64,000 nucleotides of DNA from Mosigvirus mar005p1. Shown one piece after another: positions 1,888 through 57,340 of this stretch. Positions within the stretch are counted from its first letter, which is position 1, and the number at the start of each line of letters is the position of its first letter. A program made the translations under genes and the position numbers. The stretch lies in the sequence record OZ035759.1, one strand, 5' to 3'. The notes under the pieces are model-generated. The model was not told the DNA's origin, did no database searches, and saw only the letters and a list, made by a program, of their open reading frames with translations.

Positions 1888-2634
1888 TTAACCTTTAATC
1901 AGTTGGAATAATGATGCGCTAAGTGGTAAGCCACGTTTCAATTTTAATTTACCAATGAAACCAATCTTTTCAAAACGTTGCAGACCTTGGATAACTTTAT
2001 CATATGTATCGAAAAGCGATTCAGCGTCAGTTAATTTAGTTTTAGTTTTCCAGTCAGAGCCTTTAAGAAGAACGTTGAGTTTAGTAAGTTCATGGCCTTC
2101 TGCTTGATGTGAGCCGTTAATGCGTGCTTTCAAAGCAACAATTCTAAGTTTAGATTCGTTAGATAAAGGTTGATTTTTCATCATGTTCGCCATATGCTTA
2201 ACACGATTTTCACGTTTTGCTCGGATTTTTAAAATAGTGCCATAAACATTTTTAATTTGGGCCCATTTCTTCTCGTCGAGATTAAGTTTCTCTACTTTAC
2301 GGGCAGAAGGATTAGCAATACGTCTTGCAACAGCGTCGCGTTTCTCAATAAGTTCTTCTAATGTTAAATCAGAACGAGCCGTGTTATATTTTTTCTTAAC
2401 TGGGATAACATTACCTTTAATGTAGCCTATATCATTATTAAAACGTTCTAAGGATAATTTCTCACCTTCAACAGAGTTATTGAAAGATTCACCTGAGTAA
2501 GCGCAGACCTTTTGATCAAGAATGTTTTTAAGGTAATTAAAGTCTAAGTTAAAATCCTTAGAGCGTCTCTTCGCAGAAGCTCTGGTGTGGTCAAGACGAC
2601 GATTGATTTTGTTAATTTTATTATTTGATAACAT
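1888..2634 (-). CDS. hypothetical basic protein at the T4 srd position (possible anti-sigma Srd-like)
   Basis: 248-aa ORF; identity inferred from position only; preceded by early promoter. Confidence 0.45.
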   Translation of the reverse strand: MLSNNKINKINRRLDHTRASAKRRSKDFNLDFNYLKNILDQKVCAYSGESFNNSVEGEKLSLERFNNDIGYIKGNVIPVKKKYNTARSDLTLEELIEKRDAVARRIANPSARKVEKLNLDEKKWAQIKNVYGTILKIRAKRENRVKHMANMMKNQPLSNESKLRIVALKARINGSHQAEGHELTKLNVLLKGSDWKTKTKLTDAESLFDTYDKVIQGLQRFEKIGFIGKLKLKRGLPLSASLFQLIKG

Positions 2635-2684
2635 AATATTTTCCTCTGTCTTACGGACGTTAAGGTCATTTAGCTGATAAGCTT

Positions 2685-2712
2685 ATAATATCATGCCCTC
2701 AGGTAGTGTACA
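2685..2712 (-). promoter_or_regulatory. T4-type early promoter (-35 TGTACA, -10 TATTAT)
   Basis: Minus strand reads GTGTACA-16 nt-TATTAT upstream of the 1888..2634 gene. Confidence 0.45.
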
Positions 2713-2787
2713 CTCTTTTTTCATAAAATGCTTTAATTTTTTATGTGTTATAATGGTTCTGAGTTCCATCCGGTTATTCCAATTCAG

Positions 2788-3396
2788 TCAGTAACTGACA
2801 ATAGACAGATTCCAGATTGTATAACGTCCATCCTGAATAATAGAATCTACACGCAGTGTAGTCCCTATAGGGAGCATAAATTCACATTCGTCAGATATAA
2901 GTCTAGCATTAGACCGTCTTGTCGCTTCAGGGAAAGCTCCATTGAACTCACAAGATGGCGCAGCCAGAATCATGTTAAGCATATGTTCACGGAAGTTGAA
3001 AGCAAATGGTGCATCTTTAATGCAGAACATATTAAATGTTCCGTAAAAATTATACGAAGCAAAGTTACGTGCTACACCGAACACTGGACTAAAGCTCATT
3101 ACTCTGTCAAATTTAATAATACTACCAACGCCTTTATCGTCGAGTGTGGCCATAGTTTTCTTAGAGATTCCACGATACATTGTCTCAGGAACTGAAGAAG
3201 ACCAATTTCTACGAACAATTGCACTTAAATCTTGTTGGATGCTATCAGGCTTGTTTTCCATACACTGCCACAGTACACTTTGTTCAATGTCGCTGAATTG
3301 CTCATCGATTTTGTACTGAAGCATATCTTGATAATCTGGACATTGGGCACGACGAACCATTTCTTCAATTTCACACTCGTTATACGGCATAAACAT
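2788..3396 (-). CDS. modA: ADP-ribosyltransferase ModA-like
   Basis: 202 aa; R-S-ExE ART signature elements (YRG, ECEF); position after srd slot as in T4. Confidence 0.65.
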   Translation of the reverse strand: MFMPYNECEIEEMVRRAQCPDYQDMLQYKIDEQFSDIEQSVLWQCMENKPDSIQQDLSAIVRRNWSSSVPETMYRGISKKTMATLDDKGVGSIIKFDRVMSFSPVFGVARNFASYNFYGTFNMFCIKDAPFAFNFREHMLNMILAAPSCEFNGAFPEATRRSNARLISDECEFMLPIGTTLRVDSIIQDGRYTIWNLSIVSY

Positions 3397-3453: not shown

Positions 3454-4035
3454 CTAAAAATTCAACATTTTCAAATGAATGATTTTGTATAATCGAGATA
3501 AAGGGTCATATTCTAAGTCTTCAATTTCCACAATCTCAAATCTAGAGATACCTGAGACCATGTACTCTTGTTCAGATTCAATCATATCTAGGACGTCAAC
3601 ACGCGTTTCTTCCATAACATGCTTAGGGTTCTTTCCGGCGAGTACAATGTTAACCATGTTTTGGTAGTAATCAAAAATGAACGGAGCATTCCTGAGACTA
3701 AGAATAGTGTACGTCTGATATTCCCATCTCCCAGAGAATTGACGAGCTGTACTGAAATCAGTTGTGAACGATGTTACTCGTCCAGGAGACCAATGGCATC
3801 CAACAGAAAGAAGTGAAAGACGTTCTACTTCTTCTGGAGTTACACCGCGGTAGAGTTCTACTGGTACTGTAGAAGTCATATGCTTACGAACAAGATGGTC
3901 TAATTCATAGTGGAAATCCGGGTCTTCCTTAGAATCGGTGCAAGCCCAGAGAATGTTTTGTTCTTGGCGGGTGAATTTGCTATCAATCAGATTTGTTAGG
4001 TATTCGCGTTCTTGAAGTTCAGATTGACATGTCAT
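3454..4035 (-). CDS. modB: ADP-ribosyltransferase ModB-like
   Basis: 193 aa; YRG...STAR...ESEQE motifs; paralogue of adjacent modA. Confidence 0.65.
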   Translation of the reverse strand: MTCQSELQEREYLTNLIDSKFTRQEQNILWACTDSKEDPDFHYELDHLVRKHMTSTVPVELYRGVTPEEVERLSLLSVGCHWSPGRVTSFTTDFSTARQFSGRWEYQTYTILSLRNAPFIFDYYQNMVNIVLAGKNPKHVMEETRVDVLDMIESEQEYMVSGISRFEIVEIEDLEYDPLSRLYKIIHLKMLNF

Positions 4036-4062
4036 GATAGACCTCCATTTAAAGATAAGCCT

Positions 4063-4091
4063 ATCATAACACGAGAGGAGGGAATGTAAAC
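4063..4091 (-). promoter_or_regulatory. T4-type early promoter upstream of modB
   Basis: Minus strand GTTTACA-16 nt-TATGAT, then SD and ATG at 4035. Confidence 0.55.
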
Positions 4092-15931: not shown

Positions 15932-16647
15932 TAGTCAAGGAATCCTTTAACATAATCAAAATCACGTTCAAACACATGGGCACTTACCATGGTATGAGTA
16001 TAATCACCAACTTCTACACCACATTCGTTAGCGATATAATGAAGTAATTTTCCTTGGAGATAAAAATCTAACTGCATAACAACAGCACAGTTCTGAGAAC
16101 GCATATGACAGTGGGTATAAAGCTTACCATCACGAATATAATAAGTCACTGAGTCAGTACATGGATATTCAAGCGTTTCGTCCGAATCAAGCAAAGCCTG
16201 ATCAGAACTTTCTAGAATTTGGAACACAACTCTTCGAGAGTTAGGCTTCTCTTTAAGTTCTTTTAGAAGAGCTGGTAATTGGGCCGCAATGCGAGGACCA
16301 TAGAAAGTGTTGAAGTTCGCCGGCAAAACATCTGATTTTGGTTTAGAAATAAATTTAGCGACATTAGGATATGCCTTAAACGCTTCTTCTGCGTTGGTAC
16401 CACCAGAAATCATAAACTTCCAGAAGTCTTCGGCATATTCATAAGAGATGCGGTTAATACGTGGGTCGGTCATTTTGAATGATGATGGAGTGTCAACAAC
16501 TACTGTCATAGACCCAATTTCATTACAACGTCCAATACGAGAATCAGTTACGAATTCCGGGTTTTCTAAAATTTCACGATTGACTGCTTTAAATGCGGCT
16601 TGAAAATCTGCGGCTTTGATATATTTCATTGTGTTATGTTTTCCCAT
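15931..16647 (-). CDS. 42: dCMP hydroxymethylase homologue (thymidylate-synthase fold)
   Basis: 238 aa; position after uvsX; ...CHMRSQNCAVVMQLDFY... resembles the T4 gp42 core as recalled. Confidence 0.7.
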   Translation of the reverse strand: MGKHNTMKYIKAADFQAAFKAVNREILENPEFVTDSRIGRCNEIGSMTVVVDTPSSFKMTDPRINRISYEYAEDFWKFMISGGTNAEEAFKAYPNVAKFISKPKSDVLPANFNTFYGPRIAAQLPALLKELKEKPNSRRVVFQILESSDQALLDSDETLEYPCTDSVTYYIRDGKLYTHCHMRSQNCAVVMQLDFYLQGKLLHYIANECGVEVGDYTHTMVSAHVFERDFDYVKGFLD

Positions 16648-16654
16648 GTTTACC

Positions 16655-16685
16655 TCAATACAATTTATTATATACTCAATTCGTA
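16655..16685 (-). promoter_or_regulatory. candidate MotA-dependent middle promoter upstream of gene 42
   Basis: Minus strand AGCTTTA (MotA-box-like) -11 nt- TATAAT. Confidence 0.35.
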
Positions 16686-16689
16686 AAGC

Positions 16690-16929
16690 TTATTTGAATT
16701 TCTTGGCAATGTTGATATAACGTAAAGCTTCAGCATCGATATTTCCAAGAACACTATGAAGAAATGCATCAGCATAGTATTCCAATTGAACAGGTTCTTT
16801 AATCACTTTAGCCGCTTTAGTTTCAAACAGGCCCATCAGGGCCTTTTTAAGAATTTGTTCGTTGCTGTTAATTTTAATAGTCAAAATCTCTTCATTAAGT
16901 TGGTGGTTAAAAGTTTTTCTAGAAATCAT
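16690..16929 (-). CDS. hypothetical protein
   Basis: 79-aa ORF. Confidence 0.5.
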   Translation of the reverse strand: MISRKTFNHQLNEEILTIKINSNEQILKKALMGLFETKAAKVIKEPVQLEYYADAFLHSVLGNIDAEALRYINIAKKFK

Positions 16930-18086
16930 TCCGGGTACCTCAAAGCGTCATCAGAGTTAGTTATATCAATAATAGATATAGAGTTTTCTGCTAACCCGTT
17001 TTTAGATAATTGACGTTTATAATATCTTTCACAATATGTACACGTCGTCCCGCAGATCTCATTAGCACAATCGAAATCTGGATGTCTGAACCACCTTTTT
17101 TCTAAAAAGCCATCTAACAAAGAGGTTTCAATATTTACTGTATGTGAAAACTCAGTTTCGTTTTCAAGAGTGAAAATAGTCTCTAAAGGCTTCCACAGTT
17201 CTAACAAATTACCTTCAAACTTTTCAGAAGCGTATGCTTCAAGAACTTTCAAAATGTAGTCTGTGCTACCTGTACGTCCTGAAACTTTGAATTGAGTGAT
17301 ACCAATATCATTATAAAGTTTCAAATCTTGAGGACGAACAAAACGAGTTCTCAACCAGTTAAATGGGTCTGTATCACGAGCTTTAATACAGTGTTGCATT
17401 GGATATCCGTTTAAGGATTTAGCATCATCAGCTGTAACATCAGTACTATGGAAAATATAGCAAGAGTCACGATAGCTACAATGTGTTGTATACCCTTTAC
17501 CAGCATTAGAACAGAACTCATTTACAAGAACTTCAAATATTATATTGTTCTTATTGCAAAACTCTGCTGCACGCTTCAGGAAAGAAACTGAACGGTTCTT
17601 ATGAATTCCACAGCAGACCTTTTTGATATTATATTGGTCATGCAAGTATTTGATTTGAGTTACAGCATCGACATGTAGAATTGTTGAAACTTCAATCTCA
17701 ATGTCTTTATTGACTTCACGAACAATTTCCATAACAACAGGGTTAGCGATAGTAATACGCCATACGCCTATTGACCAAAGATACTGAACATAATCCTGAA
17801 TAGCTTTCTTCTTCCACTCAACTAGTTCTCTTTTTGAACCAGGATTTATCGTGTTGAGTGTATAGTTAAAGCAAATACCTAATTCGTTACAACGTTTAAC
17901 GTAATCTTCTAACATCTTTTTGTCAACGTCAGGAAGCCTAAAATCAGGTCTGGCTGCTACAAAAGCCATTTCTCTTGTAGAGCCGTATACTTCATTTATC
18001 AAGCTATTAGGATAAGTTTTATTGAGCTCTACGATTTTATCAAGAAGAGCTAAATCAAAATTCGTTCCGATTTTAAAAGTATTCAT
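16926..18086 (-). CDS. hypothetical Cys-rich protein (possible metal/Fe-S binding), modification-cluster member
   Basis: 386 aa; C-terminal C-x4-C-x3-C-x2-C (CANEICGTTCTYC) plus several other Cys. Confidence 0.55.
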   Translation of the reverse strand: MNTFKIGTNFDLALLDKIVELNKTYPNSLINEVYGSTREMAFVAARPDFRLPDVDKKMLEDYVKRCNELGICFNYTLNTINPGSKRELVEWKKKAIQDYVQYLWSIGVWRITIANPVVMEIVREVNKDIEIEVSTILHVDAVTQIKYLHDQYNIKKVCCGIHKNRSVSFLKRAAEFCNKNNIIFEVLVNEFCSNAGKGYTTHCSYRDSCYIFHSTDVTADDAKSLNGYPMQHCIKARDTDPFNWLRTRFVRPQDLKLYNDIGITQFKVSGRTGSTDYILKVLEAYASEKFEGNLLELWKPLETIFTLENETEFSHTVNIETSLLDGFLEKRWFRHPDFDCANEICGTTCTYCERYYKRQLSKNGLAENSISIIDITNSDDALRYPE

Positions 18087-18147
18087 TTTTTTTTTTGCAT
18101 CCCACGTTAATTGATGCGATGGTTTTTTGCAGGTCTTACTTAAATTA

Positions 18148-18549
18148 TTATAGATTCGGTTTATACGATTTAAATGTTTCGAATTCGCCTTTATTCATAA
18201 GAGCTTTGAATTCGTCAGGACGCATAGCTTTGTCGTCGATAATCCAATCATATACTGGTTTATGTGTTAGCAAATTATGGTACTTCAATCCAATGTTTGC
18301 TAAGTTCTGAATCAGACTCGGGAGAATGTCAATTGCTATACGACCAGGACCTACTGACTTCATACCGCGAGCAGTGTAAAGCGTTATGGTATGCCCTGCA
18401 TCATACAGGGCATTAATGGCAGACACCATTTCGACGTCCGGCTTGAAGTTCACGTAATCACGATTGTTATTCCACTCTGTTATACAATCATCGACATCAA
18501 AACAAAGATTAAGCATGTTTTCTACACGGCGCATTAGATTCGTTCCCAT
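18148..18549 (-). CDS. HAD-superfamily phosphatase
   Basis: 133 aa; N-terminal DxDx(T) motif FDVDDCIT. Confidence 0.6.
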   Translation of the reverse strand: MGTNLMRRVENMLNLCFDVDDCITEWNNNRDYVNFKPDVEMVSAINALYDAGHTITLYTARGMKSVGPGRIAIDILPSLIQNLANIGLKYHNLLTHKPVYDWIIDDKAMRPDEFKALMNKGEFETFKSYKPNL

Positions 18550-20219
18550 TGATGAGTGATATCGCCACCGATTGGACGATAGGAAACACCAGTTTCTTTA
18601 TCAGTTAGTACCCATTTACCAGGATTTTTTGTAATAAGAGTAGCCGTTACAGGTTCTGCTACGTCATAACTAATAGAGCCGTCCTGAAGTACACGGCCCA
18701 TGTTACGTAATTGCTTAGTCAGAAGTTCCATACCTTTATAATATGCGGCTACCGCTTTAAGTGGATTATTCTTGAAATAACCACCTAATGCAATCCAGAT
18801 AATTGCCACTGCCAAATGATGATACTCGTTAAACGAACTCATCTTTCCATATTTGTAAACTAATGGATTGATGTTAATAGTCACATTACAAGTTGTTTCA
18901 TCAATAGTAAACTGTCCCCAGGTCGGATTAGCGTTGAATTCATCATAACCTGAAACAGCGTAAAGCACTTTAGCTTCATCATACAATTTTGGTCCGTAAA
19001 TCTTGGTTTCACCAAAATATCCACGAGGGTCGATAAACTTGACTTCGCCATTATCAGTAATCATAGTATTACTGAAGTTAGGGTCACCATGAATAACAGA
19101 GTACTGTCCCTGAGAACGGTTATGATAACGAATAAGGTGTTCTAAAGCTTGTTTCAGCATTGGCTTCAGACGTCCAATCTTAGTGTAGTTCACATGTGTG
19201 ATTTTACCAAATGAATCAATCAGCGGTTGAATGCTTTCACAACGATCAATAACTTTCGTATAGAATTCTTTAGTGAAATCACGACGGACAGTTTCAGGAC
19301 TTACAAAATAAGTGTCTGTGCTGAATTTCAGTGCATCTAAAATTGCATCAACAATTTGTGGACGAGCAAGACTTGATTTGGATTTAATATATTCAAATGC
19401 CGGCTTACCTTTAATGCGTTCCATTTCAAAGTTATTTTCATTAACAGAAACTAACTGAGGAACTGAATCTGATTTCACTTTAAGATACCACGAAATCTCA
19501 TCTTTCTGAAGAGCTCGACCCTGTTCGGTTAATGCGAATTTAGTTACAGTTTCTTCGCCAATTTCAACTGCATTAAAACTACGATTAAGTTCACGAACTT
19601 CATGAGCCTTTTCAAGTTTAGGCATATCACCTAAATCAATTAGATTCATAAGCTCTGATTTATTGAATGCGCCACTGTAAAGGAATTCTACGAAATCACG
19701 TCCTTTGCAGTATTCATGAATTTCCTCATCAGTAGAACCCATGTAGAATTCCCAGTCTTTGAACTGATAAATTCCTACAACATTACCGCCTGTTGCACCT
19801 ACATTAGTGATATTTTCACCGTCGAAATTATATCGACATTCGTCACCCTTAACATAGATTGCGTTAACATTCCAAGACCATGAACCAAAATCGGGAATAA
19901 TATCACACCAGTTAACAATTACGTTATGGCCGTCTAAATCTTTGTGTAATTTGGCAAGAGCATAAGCAGAACCATACGCTTCATCAACTGTACGAATAGT
20001 CACATTGAACCCTTCTTGCTCACAATAAGCTCGAACAGTTTCAGCAAATTTTGAATGAACTACTACAATAATTTCATCTGCGCCAAGGTCAGAATAAATT
20101 GTATACAAATTGCTCAGAATAGTGTCTTGTTTATAGTTAACAAGCACCTTAGGAATATGATGCGTTATTGGATACAAACGAGTTGCCAGCCCAGCACCAA
20201 GAATAACAGCTTTTTTCAT
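18534..20219 (-). CDS. bifunctional sugar-1-phosphate nucleotidyltransferase / kinase-like phosphotransferase
   Basis: 561 aa; N-terminal ILGAGLATRL...PK.L (RmlA/GlmU-type NTase); C-terminal VIHGDPNFSNTMI (APH/choline-kinase-like). Confidence 0.65.
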   Translation of the reverse strand: MKKAVILGAGLATRLYPITHHIPKVLVNYKQDTILSNLYTIYSDLGADEIIVVVHSKFAETVRAYCEQEGFNVTIRTVDEAYGSAYALAKLHKDLDGHNVIVNWCDIIPDFGSWSWNVNAIYVKGDECRYNFDGENITNVGATGGNVVGIYQFKDWEFYMGSTDEEIHEYCKGRDFVEFLYSGAFNKSELMNLIDLGDMPKLEKAHEVRELNRSFNAVEIGEETVTKFALTEQGRALQKDEISWYLKVKSDSVPQLVSVNENNFEMERIKGKPAFEYIKSKSSLARPQIVDAILDALKFSTDTYFVSPETVRRDFTKEFYTKVIDRCESIQPLIDSFGKITHVNYTKIGRLKPMLKQALEHLIRYHNRSQGQYSVIHGDPNFSNTMITDNGEVKFIDPRGYFGETKIYGPKLYDEAKVLYAVSGYDEFNANPTWGQFTIDETTCNVTININPLVYKYGKMSSFNEYHHLAVAIIWIALGGYFKNNPLKAVAAYYKGMELLTKQLRNMGRVLQDGSISYDVAEPVTATLITKNPGKWVLTDKETGVSYRPIGGDITHQWERI

Positions 20220-20260
20220 GTTGAAGTCCTCGTTGGTAAGTAGGAGTATTGTACACTATT

Positions 20261-20404
20261 CTAGTTAAAGCATTCATACTTTGCTTGTAGTCCAATCATA
20301 ATCCATCCAATTACAAGTGTTGGAATCATTACTGGAGCCGTTAAGCTCCAGTAGATAGTCATGACAAGCATCAATAGTAAAAGTCCTATTGTTATTGCTT
20401 TCAT
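20261..20404 (-). CDS. small hydrophobic peptide (47 aa)
   Basis: ORF below track threshold; ATGA overlap with SIS gene stop; two TM-like segments. Confidence 0.3.
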   Translation of the reverse strand: MKAITIGLLLLMLVMTIYWSLTAPVMIPTLVIGWIMIGLQAKYECFN

Positions 20405-21036
20405 TGTTCGCCTCGTAACATGGCACCTAGTGCACCGCCTGGATGGAACTTAAGGAAATCATTAGAGGTAAATCCACGTTCAGACGAAAGGTTGATAGCG
20501 AACGTATCGATAAGCGCTAACAACAATGTAGTAGACATTGTCGGAGCTAAAGAGTTCTCGTCAACTTCTACCGCGATACCGGTACAGAACGTATAATCAA
20601 AAAGAGCTTCGTATTCTTGTGGAATGTCAGGGTTACAATGTAACAGAATCTGTTTAACCTGAGGACGAATCATACGAAGATGCTTAGCAACACCTATCAT
20701 TTCTTCAGTCTTACCAGAACGACTGATGTGAACTAATACATCATTAGGTGCAATAAATCCTGCGTCGCCATGAGAATAATGCCCAGTGTTCAAGTACATA
20801 CTCGGGATACCGAGTGAAGCAAATGTCTCAGAAGCTTTAGTTGCGATATTAGCGTTCTTACCAACACCTGTAATAATTACACGACTTTCATAATTACTCA
20901 GTCCAGGGCGACGAAGAGTTTCAAGAATAGCATTATATCGGGCCGGGTTTTGACTAATTACTTTAGCCATAGTGGCAAGAGATGAAGCTTGTTTTACGAT
21001 TGCGTCAATAGCGATAGTGATTGGTGTAGTTTTCAT
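20401..21036 (-). CDS. SIS-domain sugar-phosphate isomerase (arabinose-5-P/phosphoheptose isomerase-like)
   Basis: 211 aa; SIS motifs GVGKNANIA...VHISRSGKTEE. Confidence 0.7.
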   Translation of the reverse strand: MKTTPITIAIDAIVKQASSLATMAKVISQNPARYNAILETLRRPGLSNYESRVIITGVGKNANIATKASETFASLGIPSMYLNTGHYSHGDAGFIAPNDVLVHISRSGKTEEMIGVAKHLRMIRPQVKQILLHCNPDIPQEYEALFDYTFCTGIAVEVDENSLAPTMSTTLLLALIDTFAINLSSERGFTSNDFLKFHPGGALGAMLRGEQ

Positions 21037-53899: not shown

Positions 53900-54435
53900 T
53901 GCATTCCAATCACAAAAAATTGAGGACGAGCATTACCGCCGATGCAATATTTGCTTTTGCAACAGTGTTGGACTGTTTTAATATGGATGTCGTAAATCTT
54001 ATCCATATCAGGAGCTTTAATAGGCTCGTCAATTATATACAGAATACGAGAAAGCGTTAATCCACGGAATTTAGAACCTTCATTGCCAATAAAACTACGG
54101 ACAGAATCAGTAAATAAACGGAATCGAATATCGTCGCTAGAATAACGAGAAAATTCTTTTTCAATGTTGCCAGCAGAAATTTTAGCATAAGCTGAAGTAT
54201 TAGAAAGAACAATAACTGTTCCACCATCATACAGCCAATTAGCAGCAAAGTTAGTCACAGCAATTGATTTACCTGATTGTCTGCCACCGTCTAAACGAAG
54301 TGTACAGTACTGCTTGAGTACGTCTTCAAATGGTGGGACATAACCGTTCTTACAAATTTCTTCTACTCTAGCATCAGAATGGTGTGTAAAAGCATTCATC
54401 AGGGATAGATAAGGACCAGTTAAAAATGTTCTCAT
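53896..54435 (-). CDS. hypothetical P-loop-like protein
   Basis: Track ORF 53896..54504 trimmed to ATG with GAGAGAA SD; GGRQSGKS and ILYIIDEP motifs. Confidence 0.45.
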   Translation of the reverse strand: MRTFLTGPYLSLMNAFTHHSDARVEEICKNGYVPPFEDVLKQYCTLRLDGGRQSGKSIAVTNFAANWLYDGGTVIVLSNTSAYAKISAGNIEKEFSRYSSDDIRFRLFTDSVRSFIGNEGSKFRGLTLSRILYIIDEPIKAPDMDKIYDIHIKTVQHCCKSKYCIGGNARPQFFVIGMQ

Positions 54436-54606
54436 TTTATTCTCTCTAAATTTGGGCCATTCCATGGCGCATGTTAGGTCCTTCGACTCGCTATGTAAAC
54501 CCATTACCGCATTGCGCTCGACCTTATTACAGGTTGGAAAAGGTACATCACTCAGAGGACTCGACGTTCATGAGGAGAGGTTGCGTTTCCCTTTATTAGG
54601 CAAGAA

Positions 54607-54936
54607 TTATACTCTAGGCTTTTGAGCTTGTTTGGTATTGGATTCCCATGCGGCTTTGGTAATTTTGTTAGCGGCATAACCAAAGGCATTAGATAGAACA
54701 CCTTTAGAGTTGAATACATCCAATCCAATAAGTACACCGGCTGTGTTAAATTTAGGAGCAAAGTACGCATTAGTTTTAGAAAGAGCTTTTTTCAATTCAG
54801 GGTCTTGAACCAAGCCATCAAAAACGCCTTTACTATTTACTTTATATGTTACTTTGGGATTTTTACCTTCTTCGATAGCAGCTTTCTGTTCCGCAGATAA
54901 TGTAACTTCAGTGATAAACTCCTGATATGTTTTCAT
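54607..54936 (-). CDS. internal protein (capsid-targeted, CTS leader MKTYQEFITE)
   Basis: 109 aa; N-terminal MKTYQEF leader typical of T4 IPI/IPII/IPIII. Confidence 0.7.
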   Translation of the reverse strand: MKTYQEFITEVTLSAEQKAAIEEGKNPKVTYKVNSKGVFDGLVQDPELKKALSKTNAYFAPKFNTAGVLIGLDVFNSKGVLSNAFGYAANKITKAAWESNTKQAQKPRV

Positions 54937-54961
54937 TTTGTTCCTATTGATTTAATTTATG

Positions 54962-55276
54962 TTATTCTTTAGGGAAGTTTTTAGAGTATGCATCATAAAG
55001 TTTATTACCAATACGGCGGAAGACTTTAGCTGCAAAACGGTTTTCAGGGTTTTTAATCATAATTTGCATCATGTAAGTTCCTGCATCCGAAAGAGCTTCT
55101 TCATAGTACCCATTAATTTCTTTAAGAGTCCTACGTTTACCACCAGGACCATCAACAGTAATTTTCCATTTACCTGTAGAAGTGCGGCTCGGTGGCTCAA
55201 CTTGTTCAATCCAAATATAACCACCTTCAACGCGTTGGTTGGCGGATTCTGCAATAAATTCTTTATACGTTTTCAT
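54962..55276 (-). CDS. internal protein (CTS leader MKTYKEFIAE)
   Basis: 104 aa; same leader family. Confidence 0.7.
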   Translation of the reverse strand: MKTYKEFIAESANQRVEGGYIWIEQVEPPSRTSTGKWKITVDGPGGKRRTLKEINGYYEEALSDAGTYMMQIMIKNPENRFAAKVFRRIGNKLYDAYSKNFPKE

Positions 55277-55340
55277 TTTTTGTTTCCTTGTTTGTTTTGA
55301 TAGAGTAATTATACCATATTAATACTTAAGCGTAAACAAT

Positions 55341-55601
55341 TTAAGCTTTACCGCCAGAAATAATTCCGAAGTTGTTAAAATCATATCCAATATCGTCAAC
55401 ATCTACTTTAGGGCTTGCTACAACATAAGCAATTTCACTACGTTTTGCATAGGTGTTGATTTCTTTACCATCGCCACCTAAGAAAGAATACCCATTACGT
55501 TTTAATGAGCCAAAGTCTTCGGCATCACCAACGAAAGCTTTAACTTTAAATTTAGGACCTTTGGCAACTGCTTCAGCGATAAATTCTTGATACATTTTCA
55601 T
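55341..55601 (-). CDS. internal protein (CTS leader MKMYQEFIAE)
   Basis: Track ORF 55341..55667 trimmed to MKMYQEFIAEA. Confidence 0.6.
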   Translation of the reverse strand: MKMYQEFIAEAVAKGPKFKVKAFVGDAEDFGSLKRNGYSFLGGDGKEINTYAKRSEIAYVVASPKVDVDDIGYDFNNFGIISGGKA

Positions 55602-55608
55602 TTTTTCC

Positions 55609-56022
55609 TTAGTAAATTGATTTACCATAGTATTTGTACCAAGTCGGACGTTGAGCAATTTTTTCATCTAAGCGTGCTTGACTTATCGCAATAGACGCTT
55701 CAGACGGGACATAATTATTACGAAATTCGACAGGGATGTCGGAAATATCCTGGACTGACGTGTCCTTGATTTTGAAACCACGTTTCAAACATTCAGCGAT
55801 TAGCTCGATTTGTCGTAAACGTAAAAATTCGAGTTTGTCGTAAAAGAATGTTACGTGACCTGTGCCTAAGATAAATGTTGGAGAGATTTTAAAATCCTTT
55901 ACACGTTTACCGTTTTGAACATGTTTACGGACTGCACCAAATACGCGTGGTAATTCACGATACTCAGCCATAAGATGTTGGTCGGTCAGTTCAGAAACAA
56001 GTGTTAAATTGATACGAGTCAT
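55609..56022 (-). CDS. denV: Endonuclease V (pyrimidine-dimer DNA glycosylase DenV)
   Basis: Trimmed to [12 protein letters not shown]...; near-identical to T4 endo V as recalled. Confidence 0.92.
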
Positions 56023-56049
56023 AATTTCCTCCAAGTAGTTGATAGATGT

Positions 56050-56079
56050 ATAGTATCAAAGTCCTTGGAGGAAGTAAAC
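56050..56079 (-). promoter_or_regulatory. T4-type early promoter upstream of denV
   Basis: Minus strand GTTTACTTCCTCC...18 nt...TACTAT. Confidence 0.5.
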
Positions 56080-56080
56080 A

Positions 56081-56362
56081 CTATTTTTCTGAAGCGCCTG
56101 AAATATATTTTTCAAGACGTTGTTTCATCAGCGAGCCGTTCTTAGCGATTTCTTCCGGTTTATCGCACATACGTAACAAGGCTTCAAGCTTAGCGATATC
56201 GCTGGTACGTTCAAATTTGCGAGTATCTATCTTACTAGCAAGTTCAGAAATACGTGCTAGTAGACTTTCGGCTTCAACCAAAGCTGCACCTAGCTTAGTT
56301 GCAAATGTGTCAGTAGCTTCGTTAAGAATAGATTCTGATAAAAATTCACTATATGTTTTCAT
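56081..56362 (-). CDS. internal protein (CTS leader [10 protein letters not shown])
   Basis: Track ORF 56081..56377 trimmed to MKTYSEF. Confidence 0.6.
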
Positions 56363-56847
56363 ATATACGCTTTCCAAGTTCCTGTTTTAAATGTTGAGAT
56401 TACGCGTTTCGCGCGATTAGGTGTCTGACGATACCATTTAGATTGGGCGAGATTTACTGCCGCTTCATCCCAACGTTTCTGTTGAAGCATACGAAGAGAA
56501 TTAGTAAAACCGGCGACGCCTGATACACCCATTTGGAAGACCATATTGACCAATGCACATCGACGAACCGCATCTAAAGAATCATATACCGGTTTAAGTT
56601 TAGCATTACCCAAGATTCCGCGAACGGCTTTATCAACGTCTTCATTAAATAGCTTTTCAGCCTCATCAAGGGTAATTGTACCGTTGCATTTACGACCGAT
56701 CATTCTGTCAAGTTCAGCTTTAGCTACGGCTAAAGACGGGTTCTTTGTTACTAAATGGCCTATGCCAATCGTCCAAAAGCCTTCAGTGTCTTTGTATAAA
56801 GTCAGTCTAAGACCTTCGTCATTACGAAGCATTTCAAATATATTCAT
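56359..56847 (-). CDS. e: Endolysin (T4 lysozyme e)
   Basis: Trimmed to MNIFEMLR...; catalytic E11/D20/T26 context DEGLRL..YKDTEG..TIGIGH; colinear with T4 lysozyme. Confidence 0.93.
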
Positions 56848-56881
56848 AATACCTCCCACGTTTATAGGAGGTATTTATTAC

Positions 56882-57340
56882 TTATAGGAGGGTAGTGAGC
56901 ACCTTATATAATGATTTACCCATTACATATTCCCATTGAGAAGGTTTAATTAAAGCGAATGCATCAAATTCAGGAATCTGTCGTCCGTCTGGGAATGTAT
57001 GATAGGAATTACAAACACTGTTTCTGAATTGCTCGTGCTCTACAGGGATGGTATATAGGAACAGATGAATATTCTTATTATCTGAGTAATGATGTTCACC
57101 TAGGTCTTTCAGGAAGGCAGGGTCATATTGTGTAAACCCAGTTTCTTCTTCGCATTCACGAATAGCGGCTTCAATAGGAGATTCACCGGGCTCGACACGT
57201 CCTTTAGGAATATCCCACCGATGAGCTAAAGAACCTTTAGGACGAGAACCAGTTACACGCCCCATGAATAATTCTTTATCTTCGGTAAGGAAAATAATAC
57301 CGGCTGATAGTTCTTTCACTTTATTTTTCTTACTCATCAT
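56882..57340 (-). CDS. nudE: Nudix hydrolase NudE-like
   Basis: 152 aa; Nudix box GRVEPGESPIEAAIRECEEETG. Confidence 0.8.
   Translation of the reverse strand: MMSKKNKVKELSAGIIFLTEDKELFMGRVTGSRPKGSLAHRWDIPKGRVEPGESPIEAAIRECEEETGFTQYDPAFLKDLGEHHYSDNKNIHLFLYTIPVEHEQFRNSVCNSYHTFPDGRQIPEFDAFALIKPSQWEYVMGKSLYKVLTTLL

Follow-up and report, generated by a model that had tools for sequence, protein, structure and literature searches.

The 64,000-nucleotide (nt) stretch of Mosigvirus mar005p1 DNA analyzed here (sequence record OZ035759.1; hereafter the window) carries four minus-strand genes, designated A to D, between positions 54607 and 56362. The leaders of their products match the capsid-targeting sequence at every experimentally defined position, which suggests that the four genes encode T4-type internal proteins (IPs). 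It is highly probable, in our judgment, that at least three of the four products are packaged and cleaved internal proteins. The full reading, in which they are packaged, cleaved and injected and also have an anti-defence role, is favored with less assurance; packaging, cleavage, injection and anti-defence function are what we infer for A to D. The finding is real but ordinary, a textbook feature re-discovered: earlier papers describe two polymorphic IP loci and unrelated cargo behind a conserved leader, count more than 30 variants and presume a role in defence (PMC2839356, PMC3012670, PMC9026906, PMC12373910). The new elements are minor, namely gene A as a leader-bearing candidate, an indel bounded by the leader, and a total of six leader proteins for RB69-type phages.

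Leader-bearing genes between e and vs.8

When all six frames of the window were scanned for the pattern M[KR]x[YFW]x[EDQN][FYW][ILVM]x[ED], exactly four matches were found. All of them are minus-strand starts of open reading frames (ORFs) within 54607–56362, with none elsewhere in the window; the mean number of matches in 200 shuffled windows was 0.005 per window. This bears out the starting point of an earlier sequence-only reading of this DNA, that four genes with conserved capsid-targeting leaders are found here. Its description of them as an array holds for the number of genes and their interval but not for contiguity, as denV (55609–56022, minus strand) lies between C and D. The latter gene, for endonuclease V, a pyrimidine-dimer glycosylase, was identified from the annotation at the orthologous position in RB69 and T4.

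All four ORFs are intact in the window. Gene A (54607–54936, minus strand) encodes 109 amino acids (aa) with the leader MKTYQEFITE and has a predicted mature part of 99 aa with an isoelectric point (pI) of 9.7. Gene B (54962–55276, minus strand) encodes 104 aa with the leader MKTYKEFIAE (predicted mature part 94 aa, pI 9.6), and gene C (55341–55601, minus strand) encodes 86 aa with the leader MKMYQEFIAE (predicted mature part 76 aa, pI 8.2). The mechanical ORF of C reached 55667; the start was placed at the ATG at 55601, which follows an AAGGA Shine-Dalgarno sequence and matches the RB69 annotation. Gene D (56081–56362, minus strand) encodes 93 aa, with a predicted mature part of 83 aa (or 78) and a pI of 6.3. 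D also contains a second candidate protease site, LNE at residues 13–15, which corresponds in alignment to ITE in the longer leader of Ip5.

Tyr4, Phe7, Ile/Leu8 and Glu10, the targeting and processing residues of the T4-type capsid-targeting sequence MKTYxEF(I/L)xE, are present in all four leaders. The residue following Glu10 is small in each case (Val, Ser, Ala and Ser in A to D, respectively). For T4 IPIII, the first 10 residues are enough for packaging, residues 4 and 7 being involved in targeting and residues 8 and 10 in cleavage by gp21 (PMC9026906). At the DNA level, an independent repeat finder detected a single direct-repeat family with four copies (D2) in 54300–56500, the 32-nt leader, with minus-strand copies at 54905–54936 (the first 32 nt of A), 55245–55276 (B), 55570–55601 (C) and 56331–56362 (D).

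The distribution of such leaders was surveyed in 54 IMG/VR contigs around the lysozyme gene e. Between one and six leader-bearing ORFs were found near e in 22 of the 23 contigs with e at least 60% identical, and none in the 31 more distant contigs. A set of 66 leader proteins was compiled from 23 T-even-type contigs (60 proteins), A to D, and T4 IPII and IPIII. Met1, Lys2, Phe7 and Glu10 are invariant in 66/66 of these proteins. Position 11, left free by the search pattern, is Ala or Ser in 57 of the 66, which is consistent with a conserved cleavage context. Single-linkage clustering gave 18 cargo families, with A, B, C and D in four separate ones.

Two of the IMG/VR contigs, L023 and L025 (~158–160 kb), contain four to six leader-bearing ORFs, several of them upstream of e (in L023, for example, 766–1059, 1126–1359 and 3813–4079; leader variant MKSFKEF). 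In this lineage the cargo hotspot extends past the e–vs.8 interval.

The RB69 gp21 protease is 88% and the gp22 scaffold 76% identical to the T4 proteins, both genes lying outside the window. Given the 97% identity between RB69 and the window, we infer that the mar005p1 phage has a cognate gp21 and gp22. According to the proposed mechanism, the shared 10-residue N-terminus would serve as a capsid-targeting sequence that binds the assembling scaffold core, so that the protein is built into the prohead. The gp21 prohead protease would cut after Glu10 (in D possibly also after Glu15) to leave mature proteins of 76–99 residues, which would remain inside the head alongside the DNA and be injected with it at the next infection.

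The region shows 97–98% identity to RB69 and other Mosigvirus phages, and A, B, C and D correspond to RB69 ORF123c, ORF124c, ORF125c and ORF127c, respectively. The RefSeq label "internal head protein" is already attached to ORF125c (C) and ORF127c (D). Positions 54300–56900 hold a run of minus-strand genes, and the order at the locus is e-D-denV-C-B-A-vs.8. The corresponding order is e-ipIII-ipII-denV-vs.8 in T4, e-ip10-ipIV-vs.8 without denV in PP01, and e-X-ipIII-denV-A-like-Y-vs.8 in Dhakavirus WG01, where each gene except denV bears the leader. Shigella phage phi25-307 has the order of the window with T4-like ipIII and ipII added between B and A. Given this synteny with T4, RB69, PP01, WG01 and phi25-307, the window locus corresponds to the ipII/ipIII hotspot of T-even phages. 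A to D therefore occupy e-denV-vs.8, one of the two polymorphic IP loci, the other being 57B-tRNA. That second locus lies beyond the window and in RB69 holds ipI (gp155) and gp156, both of which are leader proteins, so that six leader proteins were counted in RB69-type phages.

The closest known counterparts are T4 IPII and IPIII, which share with A to D the e-to-vs.8 locus beside denV, the strand, the 10-residue leader (MKTYQEFIAE in T4), the small size and the late-promoter layout upstream of e. They differ in their unrelated mature sequences and in arrangement: both T4 genes lie between e and denV, whereas the window has one gene there and three between denV and vs.8. IPI (IPI*) of T4 and RB69 is likewise a small injected leader-bearing protein of the same phage group, the RB69 copy being gp155 at the second locus (PMC6024577). 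However, its leader has 19 residues and is cut after LTE, its gene belongs to the 57B-tRNA locus outside the window, and its mature part is unlike those of A to D.

The RB69 reference sequence (NC_004928, 3209–4963) differs from window positions 54607–56362 in three of the four genes. Leader position 10 of ORF123c is Ala instead of Glu (MKTYQEFIAA), ORF124c has a +1 G insertion whose frameshift truncates the C-terminus of the B orthologue, and in ORF127c a compensated frameshift scrambles the D leader (MKTYMNFYQNLS). A contingency locus behind these frameshifts was considered and rejected: the ORF124c insertion lies outside any long homopolymer, and these genes were not implicated in the preprint.

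Unrelated cargo and exchange of cassettes

The sequence-only reading had also held that the mature parts are unrelated to one another, and the comparisons agree. Smith-Waterman alignment of the mature parts (residue 11 to the end) gave z ≤ 1.5 for all pairs among A to D and T4 IPII/IPIII, equivalent to shuffle noise, and family alignments stripped of the leader gave hhalign probabilities of at most 1.6%. Against RB69 IPI* and gp156, the mature parts of A to D gave z ≤ 1.4. Within the reach of sequence methods, the cargo parts have no kinship with each other or with T4 IPI, IPII and IPIII. The same boundary appears in the DNA, where the leaders of paralogues are identical at 21–26 of 30 nt; over the 60 nt beyond the leader, identity is 12–18/60 in five of six pairs, mostly near chance, and 24/60 for C and D.

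Searches of all four proteins against Pfam, NCBIfam, PADLOC and PDB sequences returned no significant match. Both A and B matched phrog_3966 over their full length at >110 bits. The kinship of the A and B cargo that this would imply was rejected, as pairwise, shuffle-controlled and profile-profile comparisons without the leader show none; phrog_3966 most likely joins two families through their common leader.

Three of the four genes have already been named or annotated as internal proteins. B is Ip10, a name given after Repoila et al. 1994: it is 96.8% identical to Ip10 of PP01, encoded at the same locus, and 72% identical to Ip10 of SP18 and VR7. The B family is represented in 189 phage records, some of them from phages with Enterobacter, Klebsiella or Kosakonia in their names, and retains 38 invariant columns at 53–97% identity; the structural model of B shows a confident compact fold. 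In UniRef the B cluster is called "IpII internal head protein", a misnomer. C matches phrog_2667 "internal head protein" (E 1e-20), and its family occurs in 217 phage records annotated "internal head protein", mostly under Escherichia, Shigella and Salmonella phage names. D matches phrog_3499 "internal head protein" (E 2e-46), and its mature part is 47% identical to that of "Ip5" of RB9, making it Ip5-like. Ip5, also named after Repoila et al. 1994, differs from D in being encoded at the other IP locus (57B-Ip5-ipI) and in having a 15-residue IPI-type leader (MKTFKEFATKTTITE).

The remaining gene, A, was found in 90 phage records, of which 76 are at least 95% identical and 14 are less than 80% identical. 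The distant relatives among the matches listed (~32% identity) include Dhakavirus, and leader and position are kept. A is annotated "hypothetical" in all listed records except one, and only two real A families emerged when 1.84 billion representatives were scanned exhaustively with HMMER. With too few homologues for an alignment, the single-sequence model of A reached a predicted local distance difference test score (pLDDT) of 49 and is unusable. Across the four families, cargo at least 95% identical is present in 76–233 records per family.

The comparison with phi25-307 indicates how such cargo may be exchanged. Between window positions 54936 and 54962, phi25-307 (2088–3124) differs by a clean 1,037-bp indel that contains the T4-like ipIII and ipII. 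Flanking the indel is a 19/20-nt direct repeat, GAACAAAA(A)TGAAAACATAT, made up of the ribosome-binding site (RBS) spacer, the ATG and leader codons 2–4. The crossover site lies in the leader repeat copy of A (54905–54936). Judged from these alignments, the phi25-307 difference is explained by unequal crossing-over within the leader. We propose that the conserved leader, the RBS and early-promoter spacers would act as patches of DNA homology for the gain, loss and swap of cargo, and that cassettes may be swapped from phage to phage as well as from one IP locus to the other. RB69 gp156 is 42% identical to a Dhakavirus family of the e locus, which points to movement of cargo between these loci. 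In PP01 (NC_054930, 1885–3967) denV is missing from the locus, and the ultraviolet (UV)-repair gene therefore behaves as an optional hotspot cassette. Unrelated small genes are similarly swapped at a fixed site via short conserved flanks in anti-CRISPR loci and in the PeSL cassettes of RB49 and phi1 (PMC2839356, PMC12373910). In contrast to those hotspots, the conserved linker of the window is partly coding and doubles as a protein-sorting signal.

DNA modification and the presumed anti-defence function

The premise of the sequence-only reading that this phage carries a non-glucose hypermodification is supported by RB69-type arabinosylation genes in the window. They comprise a ThyA-like 5-hodCMP synthase (15934–16647, minus strand), 98.7% identical to that of RB69, and an arabinose-precursor/glycosylation cluster (16929–20985, minus strand); the proteins of 15934–20985 are 97–99.7% identical to RB69 gp48–gp55. 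Arabosylated 5-hydroxycytosine is present in Mosigvirus DNA, which GmrSD-family enzymes can cut (PMC13326640, PMC13390438, PMC6024577), and the DNA of RB69 and of Mosigvirus NP is cleaved by GmrSD and BrxU (PMC6024577, PMC13390438). With the RB69 modification genes in the window, the DNA of this phage should be a substrate of such enzymes, and an inhibitor of them would be useful to it.

An anti-restriction role has been demonstrated for the internal proteins of T4. IPI* is an inhibitor of GmrSD from strain CT596 (PMC3012670), and IPIII is required on ECOR17 and is active in the cytoplasm without its targeting leader (PMC9391042). In 2025, T4 Ip1, Ip2 and Ip3 were each reported to block one distinct GmrSD enzyme (PMC12373910); Ip2 and Ip3 thus differ from A to D in having established GmrSD targets (PMC12373910). 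The same GmrSD role for all genes of the two Ip loci is a proposal of those authors (PMC12373910). By this model, the mature A to D would most likely act in the new cell as stoichiometric inhibitors of first-line host defences. Our best guess for their targets is GmrSD-family type IV variants that cut arabinosylated DNA, each unrelated cargo perhaps being directed at a different variant. The idea of a diversified anti-restriction arsenal, put forward in the sequence-only reading, is reasonable and already in print in Rao & Black 2010 (PMC3012670), in Silas 2025 (PMC12373910) and in a passage of Arbiol 2010 (PMC2839356) that cites Repoila 1994.

Several points weigh against this reading. When ip4–10 of T4-like phages were tested against GmrSD clusters, no reproducible inhibition was seen (PMC12373910 Supplementary Fig. 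9), and the set probably includes a B orthologue. The homology to IPI*, IPII and IPIII that marks the class of GmrSD inhibitors was not found in the mature parts of A to D, and since no cargo resembles these proteins in sequence, function has to be read from context only. A search of BFVD with the B model returned its own family only and no Ip-like structural neighbor. Whereas A, B and C are basic, D is not. A canonical late promoter (TATAAATA) was found neither inside the locus nor directly upstream of any of the four genes. The differences in the RB69 reference are either old sequencing errors or decay of a lab strain, the genes accordingly being mis-sequenced or dispensable there. Finally, neither a Mosigvirus or RB69-like virion proteome nor any mention of RB69 ORF123c–127c was found in the searchable literature.

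A literature match to "ORF127c" was discarded, as it belongs to phage RB43 and not to RB69.

Some of these points feed an alternative in which the proteins are packaged and injected and have a target other than type IV enzymes (BREX, type I–III restriction-modification, END nucleases or RecBCD) or are Alt-like takeover effectors. We regard this as unlikely. The ip4–10 results (PMC12373910) and the lack of kinship of the cargo with IPI*, IPII and IPIII would fit it, as would the early promoter of B, owing to which B may also act after injection, and T4 Alt demonstrates delivery of an enzyme from the head (PMC9026906). However, the T4 internal proteins whose targets are known, three in all, act on GmrSD-family enzymes, and this family is so extremely diverse that negative tests cover little of it (PMC12373910). 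Moreover, the ip4–10 tests were made with glucosylated T-even phages and not with the arabinosylated Mosigvirus (PMC12373910).

A mainly physical role of packaged proteins in charge neutralization, head assembly, or packaging and ejection, with the cargo free to drift, is less credible still, and we consider it improbable. The basic pI values of mature A, B and C (9.7, 9.6 and 8.2) agree with it; in T4, IPIII mutants show slower head assembly and smaller bursts, and IP lysines touch DNA phosphates (PMC9026906, PMC3012670). Against it stand the near-neutral pI of D (6.3) and the full-length conservation of each cargo family across genera, as in the 38 invariant columns of B at 53–97% identity. 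The predicted compact fold of B would likewise be unlike that of a mere charge carrier, and T4 Ip1–3 have specific anti-restriction targets (PMC12373910).

It is very unlikely that the products are not virion cargo at all, being early cytoplasmic accessory proteins or remnants whose 5' end is kept as a translation-initiation or recombination module: the early promoter preceding B, the absence of a canonical late promoter within the locus, the demonstrable crossover in leader DNA and the RB69 lesions in three of four genes could be read this way, but amino-acid conservation falls on exactly the targeting and cleavage residues amid synonymous differences between paralogues (21–26/30 nt), the window carries all four ORFs intact, cargo is at least 95% identical in 76–233 records per family, and T4, which packages IPII and IPIII, has the same promoter layout (PMC9026906).

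Under the preferred reading of packaged and injected inhibitors, internal proteins arrive together with the DNA, and restriction can be disarmed before phage gene expression is possible. Only in 2025, after 50 years, did the targets of the three T4 internal proteins become established, and more than 30 other cargo families remain, A to D included. Because the Mosigvirus modification is chemically different yet cleavable by GmrSD, its internal proteins are an obvious group in which to seek new inhibitors of modification-dependent nucleases, a matter relevant to the prediction of host range in phage therapy. We tentatively suggest, as something possible rather than probable, that at least one cargo inhibits a defence specific to arabinosyl-5-hydroxycytosine DNA. 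The best candidate would be A, an orphan family (Mosigvirus; Dhakavirus at ~32%), and it might act on a GmrSD/BrxU subtype or END-type nuclease unblocked by the T4 proteins, or on a non-type-IV defence. If true, such an inhibitor would pair a new inhibitor fold with a recently recognized DNA modification by arabinose.

Promoters, flanking gene and spacers

The best promoter match of the region (10/12) is a T4 early-type promoter at 55308–55336 (minus strand) in the C–B spacer, upstream of B. It consists of TTTACG, a 17-nt spacer and TATAAT with an extended −10 TG, and it is conserved in phi25-307. Late-promoter motifs with one mismatch occur just upstream of e (AATAAATA at 56879, and TATAAGTA). 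In the fetched vs-to-e.2 stretch of T4, the canonical motifs are likewise found only just upstream of e. Late read-through from upstream of e into the four genes is plausible. The lysozyme gene e itself (56359–56847, minus strand) forms the upstream flank of the locus, and its 3' end (stop codon) is overlapped by gene D.

In the D–denV spacer, a 24-nt imperfect inverted repeat (window 56017–56082; 75% complementary, 18-nt loop) covers the Shine-Dalgarno sequence and start of denV and may form a translational or termination hairpin.

The spacer between A and vs.8 (window 54436–54606, ~170 nt) contains an early-promoter-like site at 54499–54471. It also contains a block, CCATGGAATGG...AGAGA(G/A)AA(C/T)AAAATG, that recurs upstream of A in phi25-307 (1537–1709). 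According to the account of Repoila 1994 given in PMC2839356, early-promoter elements flank IP genes and were proposed as shuffling sites; the block may belong to the conserved elements flanking IP genes which that account traces to 1994.

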